From an uncultured Pseudomonadales bacterium (GTDB lineage Bacteria > Patescibacteriota > Microgenomatia > UBA1400 > RBG-16-45-19): 64,000 nt of DNA. The notes beneath the pieces were generated by a model, which was not told the DNA's origin, did no database searches, and saw only the letters and a list, made by a program, of their open reading frames with translations. Where the stretch lies: contig CAYYKL010000001.1 in NCBI GenBank assembly GCA_964441155.1, positions 24,393 to 88,392 on the forward strand, read 5' to 3'. The translations under genes and the position numbers were made by a program. This document shows positions 14,696 through 32,069 of this stretch, piece by piece (the stretch's first letter is position 1; each line of letters begins with the position of its first letter).

Positions 14696-15844
14696 TTACC
14701 GCCTAGTTACCCGAGCAAACCACCCAGGATTTCGATACCGAGAGGCATTTAAATATAAGCCCACTCCTGCCATCATGGTGATTAATGTCGAGCCGCCATA
14801 GGACACAAACGGCAATGGTACACCCGTCAGGGGAACCAAAACAACCATGGCACTCAAATTAAGTAGCGTTTGAATCGTGATCCAGGTGACCACACTCAAG
14901 GATAAAAGCCGAGCAAATTGGTCTTGAATTCGGTTGGCCACACTAAACCCTCGGGTAATGAGCACGCCATACACGCCAATAACCACACTTGATCCCAAAA
15001 ACCCGAGCTCTTCAGCCACCACAGCAAAAATCGAGTCCGTTGTCGCTTCGGGTAAATATTGATATTTTTGCCTGGAGCGCCCGATGCCAGTGCCGTACCA
15101 ACCACCCGAACCCAAGCCTATAACCACTTGGCGAATATGGTACGACTTGCCTTGGGGATCAGTGGTGGGAGATAAAAAGGTGGTCAAACGGGCGCGACGA
15201 TACGGACTACCCAGGATTAACATGCTCCCCATAAAAAGCCCTAAGAGCATAATGGCTCCCAAATATTTGAGTTTTGCGCCCGACATAAAATACATAATCA
15301 GGGCAAATACCGCGAGCACGATAGCAGTACCCATATCTGGCTCGAGCAAGAGCAAGCCCATCATGAGACCCACCAAACCCAAAAATGGCTCGAACCGCTG
15401 ATGTTTGGTGAGCCAGGACGAGAAATAGACAGCTACCGCAAGCTTAGTAACTTCTGATGGCTGCAAGTTGAAAAACCCTAAAGGAATCCAGCGCCGCGCT
15501 CCCTGAACTTTGGAGCCAATTCCAGGGATTAACACTGCAACGAGCAGCACAATGGCACCGATAAACAGCGGTTTGGCCAGTTTTTTTACCAGTGTGAGTG
15601 GCGTCAACCAAGTGACACACATTACAGCAAGACTTAAGAGCACCCACAATGCATGACGCCGGGCAAAATGGAATTTATCTCCAAACTGGGCATAGGCTTC
15701 CACCACTGATGCATCAAAAACCATAAGCAAGCCAAAAGCCAATAATCCCAAAATGAGACTCAGAAAAATCCAATCCACTTTGGCTGGATACTTTCCTTTT
15801 TTAAGGGTCTTGGATGTTTTTAATTGTTGGCGTTGTCGTCTCAT
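14696..15844 (-). CDS. ftsW: SEDS peptidoglycan polymerase FtsW
   Basis: 382 aa polytopic SEDS protein between murD and murG. Confidence 0.85.
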   Translation of the reverse strand: MRRQRQQLKTSKTLKKGKYPAKVDWIFLSLILGLLAFGLLMVFDASVVEAYAQFGDKFHFARRHALWVLLSLAVMCVTWLTPLTLVKKLAKPLFIGAIVLLVAVLIPGIGSKVQGARRWIPLGFFNLQPSEVTKLAVAVYFSSWLTKHQRFEPFLGLVGLMMGLLLLEPDMGTAIVLAVFALIMYFMSGAKLKYLGAIMLLGLFMGSMLILGSPYRRARLTTFLSPTTDPQGKSYHIRQVVIGLGSGGWYGTGIGRSRQKYQYLPEATTDSIFAVVAEELGFLGSSVVIGVYGVLITRGFSVANRIQDQFARLLSLSVVTWITIQTLLNLSAMVVLVPLTGVPLPFVSYGGSTLITMMAGVGLYLNASRYRNPGWFARVTRR

Positions 15845-17187
15845 GGTGCGCTCATTTCTTTCACTAAGGTTTTGAATGCGTCCCCTCGCTGTGCATAATC
15901 GGCGAAGGCATTAAAGCTCGCTGCAGCGGGAGAAAGTAAAATCACTTCTCCAGGCTTAGTTGCGGAAAAAGCCTGCTGCACTGCTTCAGCTAAATTATTG
16001 ACCTTGATAGTGTTTTTTTGTGACATGTGCCCAAGTGACTCAAGTAATGCCCATCCTGTTTCGGGCATGCCAATAATAGTGTGGAAGTTAGAGTCAGCAA
16101 TATGGGGAACAAGCGTTTCAAAGGTTTGCCCCCGATTAAAGCCACCAACCAACAAGCAGCCTGATTTTTCGCCACAGGCAGTGATAGCCGCAATCGTCGC
16201 TTCTGGAATCGTAGCTAGCGAATCGTTAATACACTCTCTGCCCGCAAATATTCCGATCTGCTCAAATCGATGTGGCAAGCCTATAAAATCAGCCAGAGAT
16301 TCAAATAGTTGAGCTTCTGGTATGTTCTCACTTTGTGCAATCGACAAAAGCGCATGCACGGAGAGCTCGTTAATCCCAGGATGATTCGTGAGCCATGTTT
16401 TTGCTTCTGCTGAAAGGGCGCGAGTTTCGCCCCCAAAGAGCACTTTTGTGCCTGATCCCTCTCCCGAAAAATAACTCAAAACTCGGGCATCGTCGGCCAG
16501 ATAAGCAATGTCGTGAGCCTTTTGAAAGGCAACAATGTTCACTTTTGCACCAGCATAGACATCAAAAGAAGGATAATAATCAAAATGTTCTCGATATAGA
16601 TTCAGAATCACTGCCTGGTGCGGACTGACAACCACATCAAGCAATTGATGTGAGGACAGTTCATAGACGATTTTTGTGTCTGGAGTGATTTGCGCGATAG
16701 ATTCAAAAGCTGGTTTGCCAATATTTCCCAATAAAATCGTATCCGGATGAATCAGCTTAAGAGCTGTGTAGATTAAACTTGAGGTGGTACTCTTTCCTTT
16801 TGTGCCCGTGATGCCAATGGTTTGTGAGCCAAAAAGGGCCAAAAACTCATTGGTTTGGCTAGTCACTGTTTGTTGGTGAGTCAAGCGTGATTGAAAATCT
16901 GGGTTAAACGGCGATACTCCGGGTGAACGGAAAATGACGTCAAATGCACTCAGCTCATCAAGCCAGGATTCTCCCCAATACCCGCTGATTTCATATTTCT
17001 GCATTAATTCCTGAGTCTCTGGGGCAAGTGAATCGAGCGGTTTTTGGTCAGCAACAGCAATGCGTGCGCCAATCCCTTGCTCAAGCAATAGCTTTGCCGT
17101 CGACAAGCCTTCCCTGCCCATGCCCAGGACTAAGATTTGAGCATCACCGTACGTTGTTTTAAGATGATCAAGTAGAGGTGAGTTCAT
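15841..17187 (-). CDS. murD: UDP-N-acetylmuramoyl-L-alanine--glutamate ligase (MurD family)
   Basis: Mur ligase three-domain architecture with a P-loop (GITGTKGKSTT). The likely start is MNSPLL at ~17187, abutting the upstream gene. Confidence 0.85.
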   Translation of the reverse strand: MNSPLLDHLKTTYGDAQILVLGMGREGLSTAKLLLEQGIGARIAVADQKPLDSLAPETQELMQKYEISGYWGESWLDELSAFDVIFRSPGVSPFNPDFQSRLTHQQTVTSQTNEFLALFGSQTIGITGTKGKSTTSSLIYTALKLIHPDTILLGNIGKPAFESIAQITPDTKIVYELSSHQLLDVVVSPHQAVILNLYREHFDYYPSFDVYAGAKVNIVAFQKAHDIAYLADDARVLSYFSGEGSGTKVLFGGETRALSAEAKTWLTNHPGINELSVHALLSIAQSENIPEAQLFESLADFIGLPHRFEQIGIFAGRECINDSLATIPEATIAAITACGEKSGCLLVGGFNRGQTFETLVPHIADSNFHTIIGMPETGWALLESLGHMSQKNTIKVNNLAEAVQQAFSATKPGEVILLSPAAASFNAFADYAQRGDAFKTLVKEMSAP

Positions 17188-18536
17188 AGTTTGGTGATGA
17201 GATGTAATTGATTTAGTAGTGCTGGTGGCACGAGCGTGTCGTTGCCCCATGACTGCATAAAATCTTCTTGCCTGGCTTGACTATTCTGATCAGGTGGATA
17301 GTGTTTTTTTACATAAGCTAAGACTGGAGGCAAGCTTTCATTGTAGAGCTTGGAGCAAAGCTCAAATGCGAGTCGCGTCTCTTCTCGAGTACCCACACAT
17401 TCAAACGGTTTTGCTTGTGTCTCATTGAGACTCGCATCAATGAGCGGGATCAAATCTAGATTTCTAAACACATCGCCGCCAAAAAAATGGATGGTTCGGT
17501 CCAAGCCAATAAACGGCGCAAGTGCACTAAAGGTAAACAAACATTTGGGACAATTTTTGCACCATGAAGTTTTCGATCGGTTACAGCTTAAGAATGCATC
17601 AAAATATTCTGGGAATTGACTAAACACGCGCGCAATTTGCAATTCATACAGAGGCCGCAATAGTGAAAAGTAGGCAATGCTACCTGAAAGATGTTGCTTG
17701 ATGTAGGCAGCTACCTCTAATTCAAACGCAAATGACTTCGAGTATTGGTGGTTAATTTCCTGTTCTTTCCACAACACATTACCTTCATCACTGCTGCGCT
17801 CATTCCCGACAACCAGTTGATTAAAACCATGGAGGTGCGCCACCAGTGCGGACAGAAATGCCAAAAGTGCCGAAAATGGTGTGTGGCCGTTGAGATACCC
17901 TTTGGCATCAAGCTCAAGCAACTGAGAATCTATGGAGCGAGAAACCTTAATAGGATTAGTAAAACCTGCAATTCGGGAAACTTCGAGCGCAGCCGGGGTT
18001 GGATTAAGAAGCAACACTTGTGCGCTCTCCCCAGTTGCTTTAACCGTTTCGAGTGCGACAACTGAATCTTTGCCACCTCCGACTAGAATTAAGTTATCAG
18101 GTTTCAGGTTTTGGTTGTTGGCATCTGATTGTGGTGCGAATACTGTGTCACTATCGACCTGAAATTGCACTAAGTCGTCACGAGTGAAATCTATGTCATT
18201 TTGATAAAAATACTCTCCCATGCCCTGAATGAGCAAGTTTCGCCAAAAAACTAATTGTTCTGGGGTGAGCATGCCTGCTTTGATGATAATTTCGGGCGAG
18301 CACGTAGCTTTCCAATAGCTTAGTAGCTCCACCATGCCCAGTGTGAAAACGAACGCATCGATTGATTCCAGCGAGTAGTTTTCGGGCAAAGGAATGTGAA
18401 CCGTGGGACGAAACACAAGATTAGGCTCAATCGAAAATTGCCAGGTAATCAGCAATTCCCTCTCCCTAACCTCATGAGCAAAGGAGTCATACGAAAATAC
18501 GGGATGTTTTTGGCGCAAGTGTGAAAACGTATCCAT
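17184..18536 (-). CDS. PP-loop ATP-pyrophosphatase-like protein with a Cys cluster; candidate MurL-type UDP-MurNAc-L-Ala-L-Glu epimerase
   Basis: 450 aa. PP-loop motif LVGGGKDS in mid-protein and a downstream CKNCPKC cluster, giving a QueC-like adenylating core. It is translationally coupled immediately upstream of murD inside the division cluster. Confidence as a CDS is high; the functional call is an inference. Confidence 0.45.
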   Translation of the reverse strand: MDTFSHLRQKHPVFSYDSFAHEVRERELLITWQFSIEPNLVFRPTVHIPLPENYSLESIDAFVFTLGMVELLSYWKATCSPEIIIKAGMLTPEQLVFWRNLLIQGMGEYFYQNDIDFTRDDLVQFQVDSDTVFAPQSDANNQNLKPDNLILVGGGKDSVVALETVKATGESAQVLLLNPTPAALEVSRIAGFTNPIKVSRSIDSQLLELDAKGYLNGHTPFSALLAFLSALVAHLHGFNQLVVGNERSSDEGNVLWKEQEINHQYSKSFAFELEVAAYIKQHLSGSIAYFSLLRPLYELQIARVFSQFPEYFDAFLSCNRSKTSWCKNCPKCLFTFSALAPFIGLDRTIHFFGGDVFRNLDLIPLIDASLNETQAKPFECVGTREETRLAFELCSKLYNESLPPVLAYVKKHYPPDQNSQARQEDFMQSWGNDTLVPPALLNQLHLITKL

Positions 18537-20590: not shown

Positions 20591-20660
20591 AAGATTATTG
20601 TACCAGTAAATGATAGTGAGTTATCTAAGAAACAACTCTAGTGAAAGCTTGCTCTTAAAC

Positions 20661-21023
20661 TCAGTTTGTTGAGTCAGTAATAAAATCAATTTGTGCGTGC
20701 AAAGCATACTTTGGAATTTGACCATCTGTCATCTCAACTATCGAGGCAATGGCAATCGAAGGACGTGTTAGATGCACAAATGAAATAACGTTCCTGCCCG
20801 TATGGGGATCATTCAGAGTGAGCGCGCCTTCAATCATGCCATGATGATCTGATTTCCAAGTTGCAAGGCGAACCTCTTTTGGCGTTGCCAAATCCAGCTC
20901 TATATCCTGATCAAAACCTATCTCTGTTGGAACTAGTCCGGCCAAAGTTGATTTGAGCGCAGCCAAATCTGTCCCGATTAAAGGTGGATTGGCGATACGA
21001 ACTTCAAGTGCTCGTGTACTCAT
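20661..21023 (-). CDS. hypothetical protein
   Basis: 120-aa ORF, no recognisable motif; it lies at the low-GC edge of the high-GC vWA gene. Confidence 0.5.
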   Translation of the reverse strand: MSTRALEVRIANPPLIGTDLAALKSTLAGLVPTEIGFDQDIELDLATPKEVRLATWKSDHHGMIEGALTLNDPHTGRNVISFVHLTRPSIAIASIVEMTDGQIPKYALHAQIDFITDSTN

Positions 21024-21259
21024 GGTAAAAGTTTTCCCTTTCGTCCTGTGTTTATATTACTAAACCGGACTCATCAGTCCCGACATAATCGGGAGAGGGG
21101 CAAAGCGGTACGGGGTCAGAAAATCGATTGGAGCTGATAAATCAGCAAAAATGACAGGTGTCATTTTCCAAAAGATGTTCGTCTCCCATACAGCTTCGCG
21201 CCCTTTACAAAATGCTAGTTGAAACTAGCGTTGATCCTAAAGCGAACTAAAGTGTTGGC

Positions 21260-22273
21260 CTAACGATGACCGTGATGGCCGGCCGGCTCGTGGTGATCCT
21301 CGTCCTCGTGGTCCTCTTCGCCATGGCCGTGGTCGTCATCGGCGTCCAGTTCGACTTCCCACTGCTGGCCTTGCGCCTTGAAAACGATGTGCTCGACATC
21401 CGACGGAATCTTCAACTCAATGAAGACCGGGACGTCATCTTCCCAGGAGGCCAGCAGGTTGCCCTGGTCGTCTTCGATGACCGCCCCGCCTTGGAAGGCA
21501 TACATCTGCGCGTCGGCCAAATGGGCGACGATCCCGGCGAGATCCGGCAATTCGCTGAGCATGTTGTAGCAGAAGGCCGCGCTGGGCGCATCCTCATGCT
21601 CGGTGTCATGCAACAGCTCCTCCAACATATCCTCGCTGACCTGATCGCCCACACCGACAACGCTGACCACCAGCTTGGGCAGGTCGCCGCGCGCGATGGC
21701 GGCTTCCAGCTGCTCGACATACTCGCCAACTTCGTGGAGGTCATGCCACTGGCCATCCGTGACCACGCAGAGCAGGGCTTTATCGATGCGCTCGCCGTTG
21801 CCGATCCGGAGTTTGAGGTGCGTGATGAACTCGCGCAACGCGGGGAGGAAATAGGTGGCGCCGCCGAAGTCGCCGTTCGGACCGTCGAACCGGTGGGATA
21901 ACGCTTCCTCAGCGGTCATCTCATCGGGATCGACGACAGCGATCTTCGTACCACTTTCCCCCACCGCCCAGTAGGTGACCCAGACGGACTTCGTCGAGTC
22001 CATCTTGACCAGATAAGGCAGGATGACGCCCATCGCCTGATCGACTTGGTTAGCCGCCAGACCCAGGAGTCGGCTGATACCGCCCTTGCCGTACTCGTCC
22101 TGGAAGGACTTGCTCGCGTCGATAGCCATACCCACGGCGAGATTCTCGATGGTGTCGAACGGGAGGACCCCCTCGAGATGGTAGTAGCCGTCGGAGCCGA
22201 GGCCGCAGTGAACGTCAACGAACGGAAGTTGGGCTTGGTGCTTGTGGGCACCATGATTAACGTGACTAGACAT
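21260..22273 (-). CDS. von Willebrand factor type A (vWA) domain protein with a His/Asp/Glu-rich C-terminal tail
   Basis: MIDAS motif DASKS after a hydrophobic beta-strand (LAVGMAIDASKS) and a downstream VVTDG motif. The C-terminus is DADDDHGHGEEDHEDEDHHEPAGHHGHR. The gene is markedly GC-rich (~60%+) with a GC3-rich codon bias, unlike its flanks. Confidence 0.75.
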   Translation of the reverse strand: MSSHVNHGAHKHQAQLPFVDVHCGLGSDGYYHLEGVLPFDTIENLAVGMAIDASKSFQDEYGKGGISRLLGLAANQVDQAMGVILPYLVKMDSTKSVWVTYWAVGESGTKIAVVDPDEMTAEEALSHRFDGPNGDFGGATYFLPALREFITHLKLRIGNGERIDKALLCVVTDGQWHDLHEVGEYVEQLEAAIARGDLPKLVVSVVGVGDQVSEDMLEELLHDTEHEDAPSAAFCYNMLSELPDLAGIVAHLADAQMYAFQGGAVIEDDQGNLLASWEDDVPVFIELKIPSDVEHIVFKAQGQQWEVELDADDDHGHGEEDHEDEDHHEPAGHHGHR

Positions 22274-22693
22274 TTCGATTTACCTCTTTTTTTTGAATTT
22301 CGTATCTGTGTCGTCCCAAGCCATCCAAGTTGACCTTGAAGGTTTTTTTGCCTCAGTTAGCCAGAAGTCTCGCGACTTTCTGTTTCTTTCTCCTAAAAAG
22401 ATTTTCTCTAACTTCAGCTGATGGCTCGCTGGATAAAACTATTTTTACCCACTGAGCCACCGCCGAAGAAAGCAAAATCTTTCAATTGGAGTGCTTTAGA
22501 ATCAATTTGTAAAGGTGCAAAAATGCACTTTTAATCCCTCACACAAAACAAGCAATTTGCTTTAGGAGTGACTAAAAGCGCGAACTTAAAATGTTAGTGT
22601 TCAAATCAATGAACAAAGTATTATATGTTATAGGTTTATATATTTCAACAACTATATTTGTCATCTAATCTAGCGAGAATTCAGAATTTAAAA

Positions 22694-22729
22694 AACTATA
22701 GACTCTCCTTCTCTGAATGAGAAGGATCA
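22694..22729 (-). terminator. candidate intrinsic terminator after the 512-aa gene
   Basis: An 8-bp stem (UCCUUCUC / GAGAAGGA) with a 7-nt loop starts at the stop codon. A U6 run follows after a ~10-nt spacer, which is longer than ideal. Confidence 0.3.
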
Positions 22730-24265
22730 AGTCTCAAAATCATTAGTCCAATCATCAACCTTTGATGTTCGGGGTTGGATTGGTTCAAATTCTGCTGAAT
22801 AATCAGGCTCAGTTTTTTTCTTCTTAGGCTTCACTACCGGATCGGACTGCTTTGTTTTTGGTTTATGGGTTGCGGCCTCAAAATCCGCCGCCCAGTCAGA
22901 TGCGTCAGAAATTGTATTTGTAGGTTTAGAGCTAGTGGCAGCAAAGTCATTTCGCCAATCCTGTGCATCCACTTGAACTGGCGGCCTGACGAGTGGCGCG
23001 AAATCAGCAGAATAATCTGGTCTAACAGGTTCTGTGGGACGCTTTTTTGGTTTGGGTTTTGGTTGTCCACCCGGCCTTGATTCTGGTCTTGTGACAGGTG
23101 AAGGAGCAATAGGTCGAGGAGTTGGTGTTATTGGTTTTGGCAATTGTTGAGCAGGAACTATCACTTTTGGTTTCAACTGGTCAAATGAAACATCACTCAA
23201 TGTGCTAAATAATCGTTTATCATCGGGTGTAGAAATAACCAGCAAGACTTCACGTATCAATTGCACATAATCTTCGGGAGTTGCTTGCGGAGGGATTTGT
23301 ATTTGCTCTTGACTCCATGAAGGAAGAAGTTGACGCAGTTTATCAATGAATGATCCTGAAGCAGGAGTAGTAGATTTTTTAGTGGATCGTGTCGCCGTGT
23401 CATCTTTGATCACATATCCTTCAGCTTCAAGTTCCCTTTCTACGCGTTCGCGATTGGGCAGAGGAAGTATTGCACTAACAAATGGGTGTGTGATTCCCTG
23501 ATCCAACATATCTTTTTGTAAAAATGCGAGTAAATCATGCGTGACGCGCATCATGATGTGATTATTTCCCATTTGTTCGATAGTGCCTGCATCAATGATC
23601 GGATACACCAATCCTATACCCTGACGTTTTTCCACTGCCTGGAGTGGACGGGTGGCGACTATCAATTGGTTAATCTGGGCATGATTTTCTCCAAAGGTAG
23701 AAATAGGAAACTGACTCGATGCATATGCATGGAGTAAATCAAGTCGTCCGACAGTCAATTCACCTTGGTGTAAGACTTTTTTTATTTCCAATTTACCAAG
23801 CACTATTTTTGCCCGAGCACTGACGCGCGCTCGCAAGGTGATCGGATCATTGAAGCCCTGATGATCAGTTTGTTGACTGATATTGGAAATAGAATAAAAA
23901 TCCATTTCTGCAGCTTCGATGTAGCGGAATTTGTCGCGCTTACTAACCCGCGCCTGCTGATAACTTCCTTGAAGAGAGGGATGTAAATCTCCGACTGGCA
24001 CGACATCGATCACATCATCGACGCAGCCTACCACTGCCAACGTATGCACGGTATCCGAATTTGGATCTTTCAAATGAAATACATCCAACAATACTTGCTG
24101 GACTCGAGCTAGTTCGCTTGAAACCGGAGTTTCATTACCTGAAGCTCGGAAAAAATCCGGCCATTGATTTGGTATTGGTGTGCGTGCTTCTCTTGTCATA
24201 TATTTTTTATTACCTTTTTTTGCGCTCAAGACATAAACGCAAAAAGAGGCAAACAAGAACATCAT
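22727..24265 (-). CDS. hypothetical protein: ~330-aa globular N-domain, a Pro/Lys-rich linker, and a C-terminal tail with 5 repeated acidic-aromatic motifs
   Basis: Low-GC ORF between the two high-GC genes. The tail motifs are PDYSADFAP, DWRNDFAAT, DWAADFEAAT, PDYSAEFEP and DDWTNDFET, the last at the extreme C-terminus. The N-domain has a Cys...His pair (VVGCVDD ... NNHIMM) that could indicate a papain/NlpC-like fold; this is speculative. The start is ambiguous: ATGATG at 24265 is embedded in a hairpin, and MTREAR at ~24199 is the alternative. Confidence 0.7.
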   Translation of the reverse strand: MMFLFASFCVYVLSAKKGNKKYMTREARTPIPNQWPDFFRASGNETPVSSELARVQQVLLDVFHLKDPNSDTVHTLAVVGCVDDVIDVVPVGDLHPSLQGSYQQARVSKRDKFRYIEAAEMDFYSISNISQQTDHQGFNDPITLRARVSARAKIVLGKLEIKKVLHQGELTVGRLDLLHAYASSQFPISTFGENHAQINQLIVATRPLQAVEKRQGIGLVYPIIDAGTIEQMGNNHIMMRVTHDLLAFLQKDMLDQGITHPFVSAILPLPNRERVERELEAEGYVIKDDTATRSTKKSTTPASGSFIDKLRQLLPSWSQEQIQIPPQATPEDYVQLIREVLLVISTPDDKRLFSTLSDVSFDQLKPKVIVPAQQLPKPITPTPRPIAPSPVTRPESRPGGQPKPKPKKRPTEPVRPDYSADFAPLVRPPVQVDAQDWRNDFAATSSKPTNTISDASDWAADFEAATHKPKTKQSDPVVKPKKKKTEPDYSAEFEPIQPRTSKVDDWTNDFET

Positions 24266-24306
24266 TTTTTTACAGCGCCCGAACTGCGCAAAAATGATGT
24301 TCTTGT
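24254..24306. repeat. ~16-bp (near-)perfect inverted repeat with a GC-rich 20-nt loop
   Basis: CAAGAACATCATTTTT ... AAAAATGATGT(T)CTTG flanks the loop ACAGCGCCCGAACTGCGC. On the minus strand it is followed by a U-rich stretch. It sits exactly at the junction between the PspA-like gene stop and the 512-aa gene start. Confidence 0.5.
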
Positions 24307-24321
24307 CGAACCTACAGAAAA

Positions 24322-25248
24322 CTAATTCTGGCTCTTCTCACCCTCCTTGAGCTGCTTGACAACCATCGCCGGATCTTGCTGCAGACCGCGCTCGGCCAGG
24401 AGCTCTTCGATTCGGCCGGTCCGCGCCGCGGGGGTCAAGAGAAGCAGTTCGCGCTGAACAGCTGCGCTGCTGGGCACACGTTGGAACGTGTCCCGTGCCG
24501 CATTCGCAGCTGCGACCGCACGATTTGCCTGGGATTCCAGGTCCCGCAACTCGCGCGTTGCTGAGTTATCCGTACCGACCCCGCTAGACGCGTGGTAAAA
24601 GTCTTTTGCAGCCTGGCCAGCAGTCGACTTCCCCGCAGCAACTTGCGCTTTCCGAATGGTTTCGGCCTTGAGAGTCTGGACGAGTTCCTTCAGTCTGCTC
24701 GCTTCATCAATCATCCTGAGTGCGGCCTCATAGTCGGGCTGCATATCCTGCAAGGATGATTCGAAACCTTGAATCTTAGCATCGGCTTGTAAAGCCGCGC
24801 TTTCGTTCATCCCGATTTCTTGATTTTGCCGAGCGTCGTCGATGCCATCGCCCATCAATTGCTTGAGGTTGTTCAACGCCAGTTCACGAATTTCAAGTTG
24901 TTCTTCACGTTGCCGCTGAAGCAGCATGTACGCATCGACCACTTGTGCATTGTGAACCTGCGCTTGCTCTAGCTGCCGCAGACGCTGTTGCGCCTCCGCC
25001 TCAGCTTTGGTTTCGATCGTCTGAGCTCGTAGTTGCGCATTATAGACGCTGTCAGCCGTTTTATCGGCTTTGGCGCCAAACGCGTTCATGAGTTTCCGAA
25101 GGGCATTCCGTCCCATCGGAGTCGCTACCAACACAAGCCCAACAAGCAGAATACCAATCAAACCAATCACAGTCGGATCCATCTTTACTATTCTCCTTAA
25201 GTTGTTTAGAGCATTACCTCGGACGTGGTCTGCTCGCTCGACGCACAA
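24322..25248 (-). CDS. membrane-anchored coiled-coil protein, PspA/IM30 (ESCRT-III-like)-resembling
   Basis: The likely start is MDPTVIGLIGILLVGLVLVA (TM helix, ~25182). It is followed by ~260 aa of heptad-rich, Ala/Gln/Glu/Arg-rich helix (LRKLMNAFGAKADK..., QRLRQLEQAQ...). GC is elevated (~55-60%) relative to flanks. The family assignment is tentative. Confidence 0.55.
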   Translation of the reverse strand: MCVERADHVRGNALNNLRRIVKMDPTVIGLIGILLVGLVLVATPMGRNALRKLMNAFGAKADKTADSVYNAQLRAQTIETKAEAEAQQRLRQLEQAQVHNAQVVDAYMLLQRQREEQLEIRELALNNLKQLMGDGIDDARQNQEIGMNESAALQADAKIQGFESSLQDMQPDYEAALRMIDEASRLKELVQTLKAETIRKAQVAAGKSTAGQAAKDFYHASSGVGTDNSATRELRDLESQANRAVAAANAARDTFQRVPSSAAVQRELLLLTPAARTGRIEELLAERGLQQDPAMVVKQLKEGEKSQN

Positions 25249-25506
25249 AATTTATGCGACCAGCGAGCAAACCACTTTCGTTAATTTTTCTGTAGGTGTT
25301 AATGTGCAAAAAATAACCACAAAAAATCCGCAGCTTAGGCGAATTTGTAATTATCTTCTTCAAATCAATCGTTACGATTAATTAAGACCGGAATTATAGC
25401 CTTGGGACTAAAATATGTCAAAGTTATAGGGTATAAATAACCAAATCGAAATTGCTACGCAGAAGCTATAAACACAATCACTTCTCGTTTTCAGAGCCTG
25501 TGGCGT

Positions 25507-27150
25507 TTATTGCTTGATGAAGTCGCTCACCACAACGTTGAAGTCAAATATATCTACTTGCCCGTCGTCATTGAGATCGCCAGTTTCGAGCTGAGAACTA
25601 AAAAGTAATTCAATAATTGTTCGGATATCGTTGCTATCGACCACTCCCCAAGGCTCGGTAATATCACCTCGAAGAATCGGGGTGGGAAGTGGAGAAGGAT
25701 TATCTGTAGGCAAGGGAGTTGGCAAAGGGGAAACTGAGGGGTAATCCAATTTGGTGTAGGCATTGGTTCTCTGCAGGTTTCCGCCTGCAATTGGCCAGAG
25801 CATGGTTTGATCGTGATAGTCACCAGACAAAAGAGTGAATTGCGCGGATTTATTCGGCAGTGTATAAAACAGCGCAGTCTTTCCCCCGCTCTCCCCTAAT
25901 GAAATGGAGGAAGCGCCACATGCTTCATCGATTGTTTGCGTGATTTCTCCCCAAACGGAATACACAACTGGAGCACAATCGGTGCTGGCAATTATCTCTG
26001 GCTGCAAATGCGCATCAGTATTACCCACTAGTATTGGACTTGCCGGTTTCGTAGATATGTTTGGCAGAGCAACTGGCCAACCTGGACGCACATTCCCTTG
26101 ATGATCAACCACCTTAAGTTCTCCCTTCTTTGGAGAATAAATCAAATCAAGTGTACCGTCATAGTCCAAATCTGCTGGAGTGGCTGTCGTTACTACTGAC
26201 TCGGTGATTGGTTGTTGAGCTAGTGGTTGTAACAAATGATCGAAGACTGTTATTGAAAGCGTGTTCAAACCTTGATTTTCTGTGGTTAAGAGTATCTCTT
26301 TTTTAGTATCACCGTCAAGATCGGCGAGTTTGATGTCTCTCGCTCTTTTTCCTTTCATTTGAGCTGAAGCAGTCGCGACATCTCCCAAATGATCATAAAC
26401 GGTTAAAACTGTGTCCCAGTTAGGCGAAACACCTGGCTCATCCATAACCCCTATGACGACTTCAGTATCACCATCTGCATCGATATCACTCAAAGCTGGA
26501 ATCGAAAATTCTGTAGAATAAACGAAGCCACTTCCCCAAATGCTTTTCAGACTAGTATCATTCCACTCAGAAATGCCAAATGATGAATCGAGATGATTAT
26601 TTACTCGTATTAACTCGTACTCTTCATCTTGATCAACATTGGTAAGACTATAGAAGTTGCTCGTGGTTCCTGCGGCTGTATATGCAAATACATACGGGTT
26701 CACACTGTTCTGTTGAAAAATGAGCGTGCTTTTTGACGTGCCCACCACAATATCGGCACGATCGTCTCCCGTGAAATCACCAATCAAGGGTGGATTCACC
26801 TCAGTCTCTCCAGCAAATGCTCGGCTCCATATTGTTTCCCCAGACTCGCTAATTAATTTGACTATGAGCTCATTGTAGGTAGACTTGCCTGTTAAGAGGT
26901 ACGTTGAAGGTTGCTCTTTGTTATCGATAGGCACTATGTGTTCAGCGGAATAGATGAATTGATGCGGCCATGACTCACCTGCAACTCGCTGTGGTTGATT
27001 GCAGCTTGCGTGAAGCCAATAGAAAACACAACCATCTGGGCCTCCATACAATCCCATATCGGATCGGCTTGCATCAGCATCAATTAAGGTCGGGTCTCCA
27101 GCGTCAATTGCGGGGGATGTGGGTAGCGGAGAATATGGCAGAATGTTCAA
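25507..27150 (-). CDS. C-terminal portion of a large surface protein: FG-GAP/VCBS beta-propeller repeats plus a C-terminal dockerin-like Ca-binding repeat pair
   Basis: FG-GAP motifs (GDFTGDDRADIVVG, SDIDADGDTEVVIG, ADLDGDTKKEILL, ADLDYDGTLDLIY). Dockerin-like repeats (GDITEPWGVVDSNDIRTIIELLF; GDLNDDGQVDIFDFNVVVSDF). The ORF begins with a TTG directly in frame with the upstream ORF and has no signal peptide of its own. Confidence 0.7.
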   Translation of the reverse strand: MNILPYSPLPTSPAIDAGDPTLIDADASRSDMGLYGGPDGCVFYWLHASCNQPQRVAGESWPHQFIYSAEHIVPIDNKEQPSTYLLTGKSTYNELIVKLISESGETIWSRAFAGETEVNPPLIGDFTGDDRADIVVGTSKSTLIFQQNSVNPYVFAYTAAGTTSNFYSLTNVDQDEEYELIRVNNHLDSSFGISEWNDTSLKSIWGSGFVYSTEFSIPALSDIDADGDTEVVIGVMDEPGVSPNWDTVLTVYDHLGDVATASAQMKGKRARDIKLADLDGDTKKEILLTTENQGLNTLSITVFDHLLQPLAQQPITESVVTTATPADLDYDGTLDLIYSPKKGELKVVDHQGNVRPGWPVALPNISTKPASPILVGNTDAHLQPEIIASTDCAPVVYSVWGEITQTIDEACGASSISLGESGGKTALFYTLPNKSAQFTLLSGDYHDQTMLWPIAGGNLQRTNAYTKLDYPSVSPLPTPLPTDNPSPLPTPILRGDITEPWGVVDSNDIRTIIELLFSSQLETGDLNDDGQVDIFDFNVVVSDFIKQ

Positions 27151-27210
27151 CGGGTCGAGTTGTGCATCAGCATTCAGAAGATTGTTTTCGGCAACTATGA
27201 TTCCTTGCCC

Positions 27211-28155
27211 TTAGGTTTGATCGCTGACTTCTTGATTATATTTGAAGAGAGAATATTTAACGCTCACATGAGCTTTTTCTAATGCGACTAAGGGAGAATG
27301 CAATATGCTATTTGTGACATTAGCTCTGGTGTCTTGCCGAGCAATAATCGGATTTGTGCTATACATGTTTGTTTTTGCAAATACTGAGTTCGCCACTTCT
27401 ATAGTTGATAAAGAAGCACCTGACTCCAATAGGCCTTGGGAAACGATATCGGCATTTCCATTGTTTACAAACAAACTATTAGTCACATTCACTTGACCTC
27501 TAACATTATTTATTCCAGCAATCTCATTCTGAGCAAAACGCACGCCCTTAATGTTCACTCGAGCATCTTTATCTACAAACAATCCATGCCCCAATGAACA
27601 AGGTTGAACTAGATCATTTATTTGGCAATTGTAGTCCATGTTAAAGCCAGAAAATTCCAATCGCTCAAGCTTGACGCTCCCTCCAATGATCGCCATTCCC
27701 GAAGCATTAGTGCTGGCAGCTCCATCGAATTGGGAGATTCTCGTTTCGGGCACAATCGTTACATGTTTATTTAAAATTACGAGAAGTGCTTTTCTCTTAT
27801 GCTGACTGCCGTCGCCTGGATCAAACAAGTATTCTTCAAAAGTTTGACGGCGCCATTGCTCACCCCGCAATACAATTATGGTTTTGTCTTCGAATGATCC
27901 CTCGGGAGCACTATTGATTGCTTCTTGGATCACGTCCATATTATTAGCAAAGTTTTGGGCTTTCAAGTCACATTGGCCACTGGTTTGCGTTTGATCGCAG
28001 ACAATAATCTGTTCTTGAGCAGCAGAAGCGGGGCTTATAGTAAAAACTAGCAACACCCACAAGCTTATTGCGAAAATAGAAATTTGCTTCATATATGCTT
28101 TAAGTATAGCGAGATTGTTTTCACGAGCGCAATGTGCAGTGCTTCGTCGAGGCAC
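27211..28155 (-). CDS. N-terminal portion of the same surface protein: signal peptide plus right-handed parallel beta-helix (pectin-lyase-like) repeats
   Basis: The likely start is MKQISIFAISLWVLLVFTISPASA at ~28092 (signal peptide). Repeated N[ST]xF beta-helix rungs follow (VTNSLFVNNGNA, VANSVFAKTN, VTNSILHSP). It ends at TAA 27211-27213, which is in frame with the downstream ORF. Confidence 0.7.
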   Translation of the reverse strand: MPRRSTAHCARENNLAILKAYMKQISIFAISLWVLLVFTISPASAAQEQIIVCDQTQTSGQCDLKAQNFANNMDVIQEAINSAPEGSFEDKTIIVLRGEQWRRQTFEEYLFDPGDGSQHKRKALLVILNKHVTIVPETRISQFDGAASTNASGMAIIGGSVKLERLEFSGFNMDYNCQINDLVQPCSLGHGLFVDKDARVNIKGVRFAQNEIAGINNVRGQVNVTNSLFVNNGNADIVSQGLLESGASLSTIEVANSVFAKTNMYSTNPIIARQDTRANVTNSILHSPLVALEKAHVSVKYSLFKYNQEVSDQT

Positions 28156-28259
28156 TGACGTTTATTTGTGAAGGACCTTACGCCAATTTTTTAAATAATA
28201 AAAGGCTTACAAAGCCTATTTTGTTTGCAACCTGAAAGTAACTGCTTACAATCAACATA

Positions 28260-29948
28260 ATGTTCTTAAAACAAGCTGCTTCAAAATCTCAGAAATCTAG
28301 CGCCTATAACATGGGGTTAGGGTTGCCTAACATTTTAAATGTCCTGAAAATAATTACTCCGCCAACGGTGGTCTATGTTCTGTCATATCTTGTGCTAACC
28401 TATCCTTTAGTTCGTGAATTCGGCACTGGCCTTATGGCCTCAAGCGAAGATGCGCTTCAAAATATGTGGGGCCTGTGGTGGTTCAAGCAAGCACTGACAA
28501 ATCAATCCCTTGAACTTTGGTATACCAACCATCTGATTGCCCCACATGGCGTAAGCCTCTATACCCATGCTTTGTCTCCCTTAAACGGCGCGCTAGCCTT
28601 TCCCTTGCTTCACTTCACCACACTTACCAAGACCTACAACATTCTCACCCTGTTTCACGCAGTTGCCTCAGGTCTAGTTTTGTTCGGCTTCGCGTTCAGT
28701 CTCACTAAGTCCTATAAAGCTTCGTTGTTAGCGGGACTTTGGCTCACTATTTCCCCATTTCGCATTGGACATTCTCGAGGCCATATTGAAATGATGGCTA
28801 TGGAATGGCTCATTCTTTTTGCCTGGAGCTATTGGAATCTACTAAAAGTTCCGACATTCAAAAAAGCGATTTTGGCCGCACTACTCCTTCGCCTCGCCTT
28901 GTTAAATACCCCCTATCATTTTTTGCACGGAACTATCTTTGCGTTTTTTGTGACACTTGTCTCATTTTTGTTAATAAAAAGTAAAAAACGATTCATTCGT
29001 CAGCGATTGTTACCATTTCTTGCATTTGGCATCGTTACCGTGATTACCTCGTTTGGATTTTTGCTGGAAATTAACTACATAAATGCGCTTGGACCCTTGG
29101 GAAATTCTCATGAACCAACCGACTATTCTCTCGATGCCACAAGCCTTTTAGCACCAGGAAAGTGGTGGCGATTAGGAGAGACTATTAGACCATTTTGGGA
29201 ACCCATTACTCGAAGCAATGAAGCAATCGCTTATCTCGGTTGGTCAACCATGATTTTTCTGACTATTGTGGTAATCAGCGCAACAAGAAACAAGCAGAGT
29301 CGCTTGGCAATAACCTCTCTATTTGTCGTGTTGATTGGCTCAACTCTCATTGCAATGGGACCTCAATTGCAAATTCGCGGGGTATCCCATGAAATGCTGA
29401 CGCCGTATGACGTGGCTAGTCAATTGATTTCAGCAATAAACATGTCCGGCGTACCACTACGCATGATGTCACTCGCCACGATTGCCAGCTCACTTTTGTT
29501 GGCTATTGCAGTTGCTCACCTATTCAAAAGTCGCAAGAGTATTTTGGTTACTTTGCTAGCAGTAGTCTATGTGATAGAAGTTTTGCCCGCACCTCTTTCG
29601 CCAATTAATATCGAGCCTCCTGCTTTTGTCAGTGTTTTGGCAAAACAACCTCCAGGCATTTTCTTTGATACGGTCAATGCTCCGGCAGTTGCTATGTACC
29701 ACCAAACAATACACGGGCAAAAGCTCGCCAATAGTTATTTGTCTCGCACACCCGCCGCCGCTAATCTCTATCAAGGTAAACTTAACGCAGCCTGGGAAGT
29801 CCGCCGTGACTTATCGAGCCTTTGCCATGATTTTAAAGTTAGGTATCTATTAACCAACACGCTTGACACGGAATTAACTCCTCTATTTAGTGGCAATCAA
29901 ACTTATCTCTATGACCTTGATAATTGCCAGGGATTGAGCTTGCTTTAG
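28260..29948 (+). CDS. polytopic membrane protein, possibly a GT-C-fold glycosyltransferase (YfhO/ArnT-like)
   Basis: 562 aa, >10 predicted TM helices with large extracytoplasmic loops and a C-terminal soluble domain. It is the only long plus-strand gene in the window. The function is an inference. Confidence 0.45.
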   Translation: MFLKQAASKSQKSSAYNMGLGLPNILNVLKIITPPTVVYVLSYLVLTYPLVREFGTGLMASSEDALQNMWGLWWFKQALTNQSLELWYTNHLIAPHGVSLYTHALSPLNGALAFPLLHFTTLTKTYNILTLFHAVASGLVLFGFAFSLTKSYKASLLAGLWLTISPFRIGHSRGHIEMMAMEWLILFAWSYWNLLKVPTFKKAILAALLLRLALLNTPYHFLHGTIFAFFVTLVSFLLIKSKKRFIRQRLLPFLAFGIVTVITSFGFLLEINYINALGPLGNSHEPTDYSLDATSLLAPGKWWRLGETIRPFWEPITRSNEAIAYLGWSTMIFLTIVVISATRNKQSRLAITSLFVVLIGSTLIAMGPQLQIRGVSHEMLTPYDVASQLISAINMSGVPLRMMSLATIASSLLLAIAVAHLFKSRKSILVTLLAVVYVIEVLPAPLSPINIEPPAFVSVLAKQPPGIFFDTVNAPAVAMYHQTIHGQKLANSYLSRTPAAANLYQGKLNAAWEVRRDLSSLCHDFKVRYLLTNTLDTELTPLFSGNQTYLYDLDNCQGLSLL

Positions 29949-29952
29949 CCGA

Positions 29953-31737
29953 CTACTTCACCGTCACCGACTTGGCTATGTTGCGCGGTTTGTCGACGTT
30001 GTTTCCCAAATCGACTGCCATGTAATAGGCGAGCAATTGCAGTGGCACAATCGCGGCAAGCGCACTCGCATCACCTAAGTCTGGAATCGGATTATGGACG
30101 TCAAAGGAATCGCTTGCTTCAGGAGCAAACCCAATAATCTCTCCCCCACGCGCCTTGACTTCGTGCACCGCACTCATCATATCCCGCGCATTGGTATCGT
30201 TTGCAATCACAAAGATAACCGGCACTCCTTTTTCGATGATAGTAATCGCATAATGTTTGAGATCTCCCGCGGCAATGGCATGGGCATGCCTATAGCTTCC
30301 CTCAACGATTTTGACCATCCCTTCGTGCACCGTTGCCCTATTTTGGCCTTTGCCGAGTAAGAATATATGCTCTTTGACAACCAGTGTGTGGGCCAATTTT
30401 TTCAATCGATTGTGTTGCGCCTCATCTAAAAGCATGGCTTGAATCGATTGCTCCACCTTTGTCAGTTGGTCAAGCCCTAGGTCTATATTTCCCTCCACTG
30501 CATGAGCAAGCAGAAATCCAAAAGCTTGCATGGCGCTATAGACTTTGGTCGACATGACACAAATTTCCGGTCCTGCTTGGGCCAAAAACGCATGATTAGC
30601 CATGCGTTCCATGCTGCTCCCGGGCATATTGGTAAACGTGGCAATGGTCACACCTATGGCTTTGGCAGCTTCCAAAATTTCCAAAACATCTGCTGTTTCG
30701 CCACTTTGAGAAGGGGCAATGATAATATCTCTGCTAGTGAATAAATCAACATACTCCTTTGCTTCGGCACCAATCAAGCTTTTGGTATTTATTTTGGCGA
30801 TTGAGCGCAAGAAAAATGCTGTTTGAGCTGCAGCAATCCCTGCGGTTCCTGAGCCGATGGTGTAGACAGTACGAGCTTTGAGTATTGCACTTGAAAGTTT
30901 TATTAATTTTTTTTGATCAATCACACTCACTGCCTGAATTGCCCTGGGAGTTTCGAAAATCTCCTTGAGCATATAGTGGTCATAGCCCTTTTTATCGATA
31001 ACTGTTTTGTCAAGTGCTAGCGGGGTGAATTTGAAAGCAACTGGCTTATCGGTGATGATATCCACCAGCTTCAAAACACCTGCATGAATAATCACCATTT
31101 GGTTATTTTCGATAGTGAGTATTTCAGTTGCAAACGGCGCAAGAGACAGGGTGTCCGAGGCAACGAAAAAATCATGATCATTTTTGCCCACCACCAAAGG
31201 TGAGCCGTTGCGCGCCGCCAAAATCTCACCGTATTTGGTGAGAACGATAATCGTATTTCTCCCCTCCAAGCGCTTGAAAATCGTTCGCACAGCCTGCGCT
31301 CTTCCTTCCAAAGAATCACCTAGTCTTAGTAATTTCTGCTCCAATAATCCCACAATTACCTCGGTGTCCGTTTGTGAAACGAATCTTCTGCCTTTTTTAG
31401 CGAGTTCCTGTTGAAGTGCCTCATAATTTTCCAGAATTCCGTTATGAGCCAGACAAAACGAGCCATCTTGGACTTCGTGTGGATGCGCATTAACTTGAGT
31501 TACTCCCCCATGTGTTGCCCAACGAGTATGCCCAATGCCCACTCTTACTTTTGGCAACTCTTTGGGCAAGCTGTCAGGAATTGAACCTACAAGCTTTAGT
31601 GTCATTATTTGGTCAGCATTGAGAACTGAAATTCCCCAAGAATCATAGCCACGATATTCCAAACGCTTCAAGCCATCACGAATAATTTGCGCCGCATTAA
31701 CTTTGTTTCGAGACGAAATACCAAAAATTCCGCACAT
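29953..31737 (-). CDS. glmS: glutamine--fructose-6-phosphate aminotransferase (isomerizing)
   Basis: Begins MCGIFG (Ntn-hydrolase catalytic Cys2), two SIS domains, C-terminal ...AKSVTVK; 594 aa. GAGGTG lies 7 nt upstream of the ATG. Confidence 0.95.
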   Translation of the reverse strand: MCGIFGISSRNKVNAAQIIRDGLKRLEYRGYDSWGISVLNADQIMTLKLVGSIPDSLPKELPKVRVGIGHTRWATHGGVTQVNAHPHEVQDGSFCLAHNGILENYEALQQELAKKGRRFVSQTDTEVIVGLLEQKLLRLGDSLEGRAQAVRTIFKRLEGRNTIIVLTKYGEILAARNGSPLVVGKNDHDFFVASDTLSLAPFATEILTIENNQMVIIHAGVLKLVDIITDKPVAFKFTPLALDKTVIDKKGYDHYMLKEIFETPRAIQAVSVIDQKKLIKLSSAILKARTVYTIGSGTAGIAAAQTAFFLRSIAKINTKSLIGAEAKEYVDLFTSRDIIIAPSQSGETADVLEILEAAKAIGVTIATFTNMPGSSMERMANHAFLAQAGPEICVMSTKVYSAMQAFGFLLAHAVEGNIDLGLDQLTKVEQSIQAMLLDEAQHNRLKKLAHTLVVKEHIFLLGKGQNRATVHEGMVKIVEGSYRHAHAIAAGDLKHYAITIIEKGVPVIFVIANDTNARDMMSAVHEVKARGGEIIGFAPEASDSFDVHNPIPDLGDASALAAIVPLQLLAYYMAVDLGNNVDKPRNIAKSVTVK

Positions 31738-32030
31738 AGATGCACCTCATTTTTTTCTAATTAAAGAATATGTTGTGAAAATTAAACTTTATGCAAGCTG
31801 GAGAATTGCTTGCTTCAAGATCCAAGCTGACTTTGTTTTCTGTAATTACTCACAGGATTTGATCAGGTTGGTTAGTGGATGCTTGACTCACCCAGAAGGT
31901 TTCCGCTGATACTTACTGAAGGCAGCCGTCTAGGCGCCGAAAGTAGTCCGATTTCTTGAAGCTGACTTCAAGACCTTCTTCCTCGTATCCCTAAATCGTC
32001 AAATGACGATGCAGGACCACACGCTCTTTT
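31738..32030 (-). ncRNA. structured 5' leader upstream of glmS; weak candidate glmS-ribozyme-like element
   Basis: A 332-nt gap between murA and glmS. The minus-strand RNA carries, in order: AGAGCG..., a P1-like hairpin (UCGUCAUUUGACGA), GAUACGAGGAAGAAGGU, a 7-bp hairpin (CUUGAAG-UCAG-CUUCAAG), AAUCGG...UUUCGGCGCC, and ACGGCUG...CAGCGG. These resemble glmS-ribozyme core blocks (GACGAGGA, AUCGAAUUUUCGGCGG, CGGCUG), but the P2 topology and the 5' GCGCC are not matched. Low confidence. Confidence 0.2.
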
Positions 32031-32069
32031 TTTGGTTATCCCTCCATAAACCTCCTTTCAAAATACACC

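Follow-up and report, generated by a model that had tools for sequence, protein, structure and literature searches.

The locus raises the question whether two adjacent open reading frames on the minus strand, ORF-A (28092..27211) and ORF-B (27150..25507), are two genes or the separated parts of a single one. Both lie in the same frame within the window, by which the whole analysed stretch of 64,000 nucleotides is meant, and the TAA at 27213..27211 stands between them. This minus-strand layout bears out what a sequence-only reading had noticed, namely two ORFs in one frame that are split only by this stop codon. The features are as follows.

20600..29950, no strand assigned: variable island between glmS and dagK-mraY, the gene content of which differs in four relatives.
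27211..28092, minus strand: ORF-A, 293 codons plus TAA, encoding a signal peptide and the first ~276 residues of a ~340-residue beta-helix module.
28021..28092, minus strand: start ATG 28092 and Sec-type signal peptide MKQISIFAISLWVLLVFTISPASA with predicted cleavage after ASA, assigned from sequence and hydrophobicity.
27211..27213, minus strand: in-frame TAA in the context ACC TAA G, cutting the beta-helix module between two predicted strands.
27151..27210, minus strand: spacer of 20 sense codons after the stop, GQGIIVAENNLLNADAQLDP, encoding the next beta-strand of the helix.
27025..27183, minus strand: cap that closes the beta-helix module at its C-terminus, ..DPLNILPYSPLPTSPAIDAGDPTLIDADASRSDMGLYGGPDG, more conserved than any other motif of the family and located 3' of the stop.
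25507..27150, minus strand: ORF-B, from TTG 27150 to TAA 25509..25507, 547 aa, with no signal peptide of its own.
25738..26952, minus strand: FG-GAP-repeat beta-propeller, assigned by Pfam, AlphaFold and Foldseek.
25672..25737, minus strand: proline-rich linker, ..SVSPLPTPLPTDNPSPLPTPIL, assigned from sequence, with low pLDDT in the model.
25510..25671, minus strand: dockerin-like C-terminal module with one canonical loop, DLNDDGQVDIFD, and one degenerate loop, DITEPWGVVDSND, matching Dockerin_1 below threshold.

At its longest, ORF-A extends over 28155..27211; its likely start is the ATG at 28092, and the resulting protein of 293 aa matches the public gene calls. For ORF-B, some gene callers choose the ATG at 27057 as an alternative start, which gives 516 aa. 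The spacer (27210..27151) has no stop, ATG or GTG across its 20 in-frame codons, as had been stated, and TTG is missing there too. The shared frame by itself is not significant, as it is common in such a compact window: about 7-8 adjacent gene pairs in the window are divided by a single in-frame stop, and 20 stop-free codons have a chance of P ~0.42. The feature that goes beyond chance is a conserved protein module running straight across the stop.

AlphaFold modelled the joined module as one confident beta-helix (pLDDT 86.9, pTM 0.89) with strands on either side of the stop, which is positioned between strands 272-274 and 280-284. Foldseek matched the joined module to pectate lyases and PL6/alginate lyases with a probability of 1.0. 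The right-handed parallel beta-helix is shared with the pectate lyase-like and PL6 structures (PDB 7xks, 7dmk, 3zsc, 1jrg) at a TM of ~0.5, but the identity to these is ~10-14%, no catalytic residues were identified and there is no family match at the sequence level; the lyase-like fold predicted by the model does not imply enzymatic activity. A sequence search of the PDB returned nothing. The beta-helix that had been assigned to ORF-A holds at the level of the fold and of the homologues, 10 of 12 of which have a Beta_helix/NosD Pfam match in the alignment, but not for the window protein itself, which gave no match to Beta_helix (PF13229) or NosD (PF05048), whether split or joined. Since only the first ~276 of ~340 residues are encoded before the TAA, the beta-helix domain is truncated in ORF-A. 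The family-invariant cap residues S326, P327, G332, D340, G347, G350 and G351 are all kept and are encoded after the stop, and stretches of the cap are 45-56% identical to the multi-copy cap motifs of P0016 and P0061. The choice-of-anchor Q model of NCBIfam (NF041518) matches PYSPLPTSPAIDAGDP with 13.7-14 bits, which does not reach the required 25 bits; 6 of the 13 members of alignment A2, the window protein included, match this model at E up to 0.1, with 3e-4 as the best value.

An exhaustive HMMER search covered 1.84 billion representatives, and the best 150 matches were examined. Among these are 22 homologues with the N-terminal module; every one of them also has the cap (query 325-355) in that chain, 17 of the 22 match in one continuous stretch over position 293|294, and none is split at the site of the stop. 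In alignments A1 and A2, invariant columns occur before as well as after the stop. The hallmark of the family is helix and cap in one chain, and the window keeps every invariant residue, but the TAA at 27213..27211 parts them. The homologues of the module include one from Candidatus Dojkabacteria and one from Portnoybacteria. No orthologue was found in 15 billion proteins, the best non-self identity being <=36%; word-indexed searches returned only the gene itself, and the profile search only generic beta-helix proteins. The comparison with orthologues that the sequence-only reading had proposed found none in the searched data to compare.

Closest in architecture are beta-helix proteins that end in a dockerin (Dojkabacteria MBD3362928.1, which is P0029, as well as P0009, P0027, P0054 and P0010), with 25-36% identity over query ~10-366. 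The window protein has in common with them a signal peptide, conserved N-terminal cysteines, the right-handed beta-helix, the cap SPAxDxGDP..D.DGSRSDMG.YGGP and a dockerin-type C-terminus. They differ from it in that they have no FG-GAP propeller between helix and dockerin and are uninterrupted, and no member diverges further than the window protein, which has no Beta_helix/NosD match, unlike 10 of 12 homologues. P0009, P0027, P0054 and P0010 combine Beta_helix/NosD and a significant C-terminal Dockerin_1 match in a single chain, and from this architecture it follows that the N-terminus of ORF-A and the C-terminus of ORF-B belong together.

The FG-GAP repeats that had been read in ORF-B are clearly supported, as FG-GAP_3 (PF13517) scores 39.7 bits against a cut-off of 26.9 and FG-GAP (PF01839) 34.9 bits against 22.1. 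In the AlphaFold model of ORF-B the residues 36-440 are all-beta (pTM 0.74), and the top Foldseek matches of this core are Bap1, CRTAC1 and lectin propellers. The ORF-B core thus has its closest structural counterparts in the propellers of Vibrio cholerae Bap1 (6mlt), CRTAC1 (9etn) and Photorhabdus lectins, but these are only ~11-14% identical to it and stand in another domain context. Concerning the C-terminal dockerin-like pair, the tail can be called dockerin-like and has one canonical Ca-binding loop, the second (DLNDDGQVDIFD), but the first (DITEPWGVVDSND) is degenerate, model confidence is low in this part, and as Dockerin_1 (PF00404) it stays below threshold (E 0.02, 15.5 bits, cut-off 22.9), as it does with NCBIfam dockerin_GC (E 0.057, 13.8 bits, cut-off 29). 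A cohesin domain was not found in any of the window ORFs scanned.

The two ORFs also differ with respect to export. The N-terminus of ORF-A (MKQISIFAISLWVLLVFTISPASA|AQ) reaches a 12-residue Kyte-Doolittle maximum of 2.9, a hydrophobic core that agrees with the signal peptide proposed for it, and in the alignment similar signal peptides open the homologues. With either start, ORF-B reaches 0.4-0.6 and has no hydrophobic stretch at its N-terminus, in line with the earlier statement that the downstream ORF lacks a signal peptide. ORF-B is therefore not exportable alone. FG-GAP and dockerin are extracellular Ca-binding modules. When ORF-B is modelled in isolation, its first 35 residues are disordered.

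The TAA itself is real. It is present in all of 11 independent Logan assemblies from 11 sequencing runs, which agree throughout this region, and NCBI lists the products of 293 aa and 547 aa from a 309-kb contig as well. The runs are SRR8893622/23/25, SRR13214015, SRR30362386, SRR30303806, SRR35759032/38/39 and SRR34646263/74. It is extremely improbable that the TAA arose through faulty sequencing or assembly, or that it represents the majority allele while an intact sense allele goes unseen: the evidence consists of consensus assemblies, one of which has a single mismatch at 27509 near a contig end, and the chimeric end of another (L011) reveals a co-occurring relative, but exactly the same TAA was assembled separately from all 11 runs, with neither a sense codon nor a contig break at the site, and the split products of the NCBI contig agree. 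All 32 differences of L011 lie in its 230-bp chimeric contig end, within the neighbouring membrane-protein gene, and none is in the interrupted gene; the use of L011 as a divergent allele for dN/dS was rejected, since its differences belong to this chimeric end outside the gene. Of the explanations offered by the sequence-only reading, a sequencing or assembly error is thus effectively excluded, and strain heterogeneity is unsupported, as no assembly has a sense codon or a break at the site. Furthermore, 24 of 47 long ORFs in the window end in TAA, including murA, murB, mraY, ftsZ, ftsA, ftsW and the PBP gene, and the terminator context of murA is TAA-G, the same as that of the interrupting stop. 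An alternative code with TAA as a sense codon was rejected, because TAA terminates conserved genes. The TAA is genuine and the code is standard.

A verified in-frame stop therefore lies inside a sequence that is contiguous coding in the homologues, which is one mark of a pseudogene made by nonsense mutation. The claim of one ancestral gene of ~860 codons that carries a nonsense codon is supported by the homologue alignments, the structure prediction and the family architecture, and we consider it likely that the locus as a whole is an accessory surface-protein gene disrupted by this codon, most likely a pseudogene of recent origin. The ancestral protein would have had, in this order, a signal peptide, a right-handed beta-helix, an FG-GAP propeller, a proline-rich linker and a dockerin-like tail, and it may have been secreted and probably located at the cell surface as a carbohydrate-binding or carbohydrate-active protein. 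A point mutation would then have created the TAA within the last turns of the beta-helix. As TAA is a genuine terminator and the commonest one in this organism, translation can be assumed to end there, which would yield a secreted beta-helix that has lost the conserved cap at its C-terminus and is probably unstable. The other 567 codons would either not be translated at all or give a product that has no signal peptide and is kept in the cytoplasm. Since the downstream frame is open and its conserved residues are intact, the mutation is presumably recent on an evolutionary scale, and the stop seems to have become fixed in the clonal population that all available assemblies sampled. From these data we infer that function was lost, that the shortened product is unstable and that the protein acted at the surface or on carbohydrates; it may likewise have been an adhesin, in line with the term adhesin-like in the sequence-only reading, and its bearer an epibiont, a case which that reading had considered.

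Against a pseudogene stand the 567 fully open codons and the retention of all family-invariant cap residues. An intact downstream frame fits a very recent mutation as well as continued selection, either via readthrough or via independent use of the downstream part. Low-level readthrough of the TAA would give the full-length secreted protein of ~860 aa, and the stop would dampen the output of an abundant surface protein, as an attenuator that is either tolerated or regulatory. This is quite unlikely. The 567 downstream codons and their conserved residues are indeed intact, and, as no promoter or terminator was found between ORF-A and ORF-B, both halves are presumably on one transcript. However, UAA is the least leaky bacterial stop and is here the preferred genuine terminator, no RNA structure that could stimulate readthrough was found 3' of the stop (z = +0.9), the window contains no tRNA genes of any kind, and no orthologue was found that shows conservation of the stop. 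The leaky context and the stimulatory structure of programmed readthrough are thus lacking, as the UAA-G is that of murA and the downstream RNA is unstructured, and nothing favours the readthrough that had been proposed. Still more improbable is the variant in which the TAA is a tolerated or selected attenuator, with rare readthrough or a suppressor tRNA giving little beta-helix/FG-GAP/dockerin protein and the bulk ending as a short secreted fragment; if it were true, a bacterium with a small genome, possibly living attached to a host, could use it to adjust or conceal an attachment factor.

Independent use of the downstream part would mean a fission into two working genes, a shorter secreted beta-helix and an ORF-B that is translated independently from TTG 27150 or ATG 27057, e.g., by reinitiation. 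Public gene calls do contain two CDS, of 293 aa and of 516 or 547 aa, and the products of 293 and 547 aa at NCBI suggest that the record calls two ordinary coding genes. Shine-Dalgarno motifs are weak across the genome and most genes, including ORF-A, have no clear one, so a motif is not required and an ORF-B without it is still compatible with independent initiation; for the same reason the Shine-Dalgarno motif was rejected as a test of independent translation, being uninformative here. Nevertheless, we regard a fission as quite improbable, because the break is inside a single folded domain, ORF-A would be deprived of the family's most conserved motif, ORF-B would open with an orphan cap fragment that is disordered when modelled alone and would have no signal peptide although its FG-GAP and dockerin modules are extracellular, and none of the 22 homologues is split at this site. 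As an error is effectively excluded, heterogeneity is unsupported and readthrough has nothing in its favour, a pseudogene is the one explanation remaining of the four that had been offered. With nonsense-mutation pseudogenes of bacterial accessory surface genes, the locus shares one stop that falls in frame within a domain, a downstream part lacking an export signal and the location in a variable island; it differs from them in that the downstream frame shows no decay and no intact allele was found.

Besides the interrupted gene, which is lineage-specific, the variable island contains three more ORFs of this kind (286, 512 and 337 aa) and a membrane protein of 562 aa. Four relatives lack the interrupted gene in the syntenic interval, and tblastn of the island genes in these four found none except the membrane-protein family. 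In a genome-collection scan of species representatives, the adjacent 562-aa membrane protein had relatives of 24-32% identity only, and a metagenome scan with GlmS gave a best match of 45% identity and no close relative. No duplicated glmS 3' end that could mark the island boundary was found in the window. Accessory genes in variable islands are often lost, and because it is located in such an island next to glmS, the gene is a plausible strain-specific surface factor.

For annotation, the finding means that two unrelated-looking hypothetical proteins, one of 293 aa and one of 516 or 547 aa, are most likely the halves of one disrupted gene, and no other protein among 15 billion showed the combination of beta-helix, FG-GAP propeller and dockerin-like tail. 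The event calls for no new mechanism; it is an ordinary one that is well documented here. The inactivation, apparently fixed in a clone recovered unchanged from 11 runs, would be a small data point on how uncultured bacteria with small genomes gain and lose surface proteins.

On the minus strand, two open reading frames in the same frame are divided by one TAA, as the sequence-only reading had described:

28155..27211, minus strand: ORF-A, the upstream half, in its longest form, ending in TAA 27213..27211
from ATG 28092, minus strand: signal peptide of ORF-A, MKQISIFAISLWVLLVFTISPASA before AQEQ
27210..27151, minus strand: spacer of 20 codons, GQGIIVAENNLLNADAQLDP, in the same frame as ORF-A, with no stop, ATG, GTG or TTG
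TTG 27150 to stop 25509..25507, minus strand: ORF-B, the downstream half, 547 aa

For ORF-A the start at ATG 28092, giving 293 aa, is favoured by public gene calls and the signal peptide, and some gene callers begin ORF-B at ATG 27057 (516 aa, protein P0001). In this compact window, with nearly all genes on the minus strand, a single in-frame stop separates 7-8 neighbouring gene pairs, and the probability of 20 codons without a stop is ~0.42. The frame coincidence by itself is not beyond chance, and therefore the case depends on one protein domain crossing the stop.

The joined 860-aa sequence (ORF-A, spacer and ORF-B) was the query of an exhaustive HMMER search against 1.84 billion cluster representatives, which gave its own two halves and then only distant relatives with at most 36% identity. 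The N-terminal module occurs in 22 of the best 150 matches, and all 22 homologues also have in the same polypeptide query residues 325-355, which here are encoded after the stop; in 17 of them one HMMER stretch crosses position 293/294. Candidatus Dojkabacteria and Portnoybacteria are the source of some homologues. In the alignment, family-invariant residues are located before the stop (C32, C41, K109, G124, G168, N235, N261) as well as after it (S326, P327, G332, D340, G347, G350, G351), where the conserved C-terminal end of the module is also found:

27183..27025, downstream of the TAA: cap, with the family's most conserved motif SPAxDxGDP..D.DGSRSDMG.YGGP

Using the homologue alignment, AlphaFold modelled the joined module as one confident right-handed beta-helix (pLDDT 86.9, pTM 0.89), in which the stop falls between model residues 276 and 277, flanked by strands 272-274 and 280-284. 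Foldseek against the PDB returned pectate lyases and PL6 alginate lyases (probability 1.0, TM ~0.5). Pfam Beta_helix and NosD are matched by 10 of the 12 aligned homologues, and the window protein, which is too divergent, matches neither. The earlier claim of one gene of ~860 aa with a nonsense codon is supported, since homologues and model are both continuous across the stop. We consider it likely that this is a young pseudogene: one gene, encoding a secreted surface protein, whose beta-helix domain would have acquired the TAA by point mutation. The product of ORF-A would be a truncated helix without the conserved cap, and ORF-B would either stay silent or, when translated, give a mislocalised protein. 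The mutation would be young, because the downstream frame is untouched and the conserved residues are intact.

The FG-GAP repeats claimed for ORF-B are confirmed by FG-GAP_3 and FG-GAP matches above the Pfam cut-offs. Residues 36-440 of P0001 were modelled as a confident all-beta domain (pTM 0.74), whose closest structures are FG-GAP/lectin beta-propellers (Bap1, CRTAC1, Photorhabdus lectins); residues 1-35, where the cap's orphaned end is left, come out as disordered when modelled alone. The C-terminal dockerin-like pair stands only in part: the tail is dockerin-like with one canonical loop (DLNDDGQVDIFD), but Dockerin_1 remains under its cut-off (E 0.02) and the other loop is degenerate. Four proteins homologous to the N-terminal module (P0009, P0027, P0054, P0010) terminate in significant Dockerin_1 domains, so that the usual family architecture is signal peptide, beta-helix and dockerin in one chain, which links the front of ORF-A with the tail of ORF-B. 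These four share beta-helix and dockerin with the interrupted gene but are devoid of the propeller, and since no homologue found has an FG-GAP propeller between helix and dockerin, the domain combination is unique to this gene. Fold and domain analogies, the sole basis of the predicted role, suggest that the intact protein binds or cleaves carbohydrates at the cell surface, anchored via its dockerin-like tail. No cohesin domain was found within the window.

The 47 long ORFs terminate with TAA (24), TGA (13) or TAG (10), and TAA ends murA (with G next, as here), murB, mraY, ftsZ, ftsA, ftsW and the PBP gene; the genetic code is standard. The RNA that follows the stop shows no excess of structure over shuffled sequence (z = +0.9), no promoter-like or terminator-like sites are present between ORF-A and ORF-B, and the window contains no tRNA genes. 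Low-level readthrough of the UAA, one of the explanations proposed earlier, has as its main argument that the downstream frame is untouched and the conserved residues intact; it is nevertheless improbable, as UAA is a standard terminator here, the RNA past the stop is unstructured and nothing speaks positively for it. The Shine-Dalgarno motif is missing at both candidate starts of ORF-B, but also at ORF-A and most window genes, and its lack therefore says nothing either way. ORF-B has no hydrophobic N-terminus, in agreement with the claim that it lacks its own signal peptide; translated alone, its extracellular-type Ca-binding modules would remain cytoplasmic. Functional fission into two working genes draws on the same intact frame and residues, but we regard it as unlikely, because the stop splits one beta-helix domain and ORF-B starts without a hydrophobic segment.

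Contigs carrying the exact ORF-B protein come from 11 sequencing runs, each assembled separately. All 11 assemblies match the window exactly across the gene, TAA included, with no contig break at this position; protein records from a 309-kb NCBI contig also list the 293-aa and 547-aa products. Because the TAA is identical in 11 separately assembled runs, a sequencing or assembly error, also proposed before, is excluded for practical purposes. An artefact, or a polymorphism hiding a minor sense allele within samples, is very improbable, as all 11 carry the TAA unbroken at consensus level. The identity of assemblies L001-L013 exempts two contig ends: a single mismatch at 27509 in L004, 15 nt from the end, and 32 differences in L011 (SRR34646263), all in 28586-28814 in the neighbouring membrane-protein gene. 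The latter stretch, the last 230 bp, is ~14% different, mostly synonymously, with the remainder of the contig identical, and is where the contig was chimerically joined to sequence from a related, co-occurring population. The window sequence recurs in several differently numbered run series without difference over up to 21.5 kb; the sampled population is therefore remarkably clonal, or one source was sampled repeatedly.

The window holds a cell division/peptidoglycan cluster (mraZ-side genes, PBP, murE/C/B/A, glmS with ribozyme, and after glmS dagK, mraY, murL, murD, ftsW, murG, ftsA, ftsZ), an envelope-glycan cluster and fermentative genes. This content fits a small-genome fermenter; an 'epibiont' lifestyle is a guess.

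31813-32036, minus strand: glmS ribozyme/riboswitch (Rfam RF00234, 53 bits, full length), directly upstream of glmS (31737..29953)
28260-29948, plus strand: gene for a ~560-aa polytopic membrane protein, no Pfam match
25393-25421, minus strand: perfect sigma-70 consensus (TTGACA-17 nt-TATAAT, 12/12), just downstream of ORF-B
22727-24265, minus strand: 512-aa protein, no Pfam match, absent from all relatives examined
17184-18536 and 15841-17250, minus strand: adjacent MurL-type epimerase and MurD-like ligase genes in the division/cell-wall cluster

The MurL-type/MurD-like pair is kept in all relatives; the MurL domains are those annotated publicly for the identical locus and were not matched with the Pfam copy used. 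The promoter-like site lies upstream of the next gene (25248/25182..24322) and is followed by a terminator-like hairpin at 25346-25324. The C-terminal half of the 512-aa protein is proline/lysine-rich with a repeated DW..DF motif (DAQDWRNDF, DASDWAADF, VDDWTNDF).

Four relatives, reached via cluster members, were compared at the glmS to dagK-mraY interval, and all four differ there from the window:

L037: single Bro-N protein (GlmS 81%, MraY 96% identical)
L032/L040: AAA ATPase and 563-aa membrane protein
L041: integrase directly upstream of dagK; contig ends before glmS
L036: two membrane-protein paralogues and an unrelated FG-GAP protein upstream of dagK; contig stops short of glmS

In these four relatives tblastn found neither the joined protein nor any of the next three ORFs, and together with the other interval content this identifies the interrupted gene as a lineage-specific accessory gene. 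It lies in a variable island of ~9 kb (roughly 20600-29950). Among close relatives the interval stands out as a gene-turnover hot spot. The ~560-aa membrane-protein gene, the sole plus-strand member of the 47 tabulated long ORFs, belongs to a family that adjoins the island in relatives too (31-37% identity; L036 52-1722 and 1682-3370, a tandem duplication; L040 688-2379). L032 19395-19463, equal to L040 607-675 (Ga0498930_0000003), duplicates 23 codons from the 3' end of glmS, with 83% identity to the C-terminus of the window's GlmS; it lies 2.35 kb downstream of glmS, beyond the AAA-ATPase gene. No such copy is present in the window. In the relative it resembles the trace that site-specific insertion at the 3' end of glmS would leave.

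Accessory genes disrupted by a nonsense mutation are commonplace, and functional UAA readthrough, if true, would be the sole reading to raise interest in this one. What is new is that two 'hypothetical proteins' are correctly read as one gene, with a domain combination not seen elsewhere.
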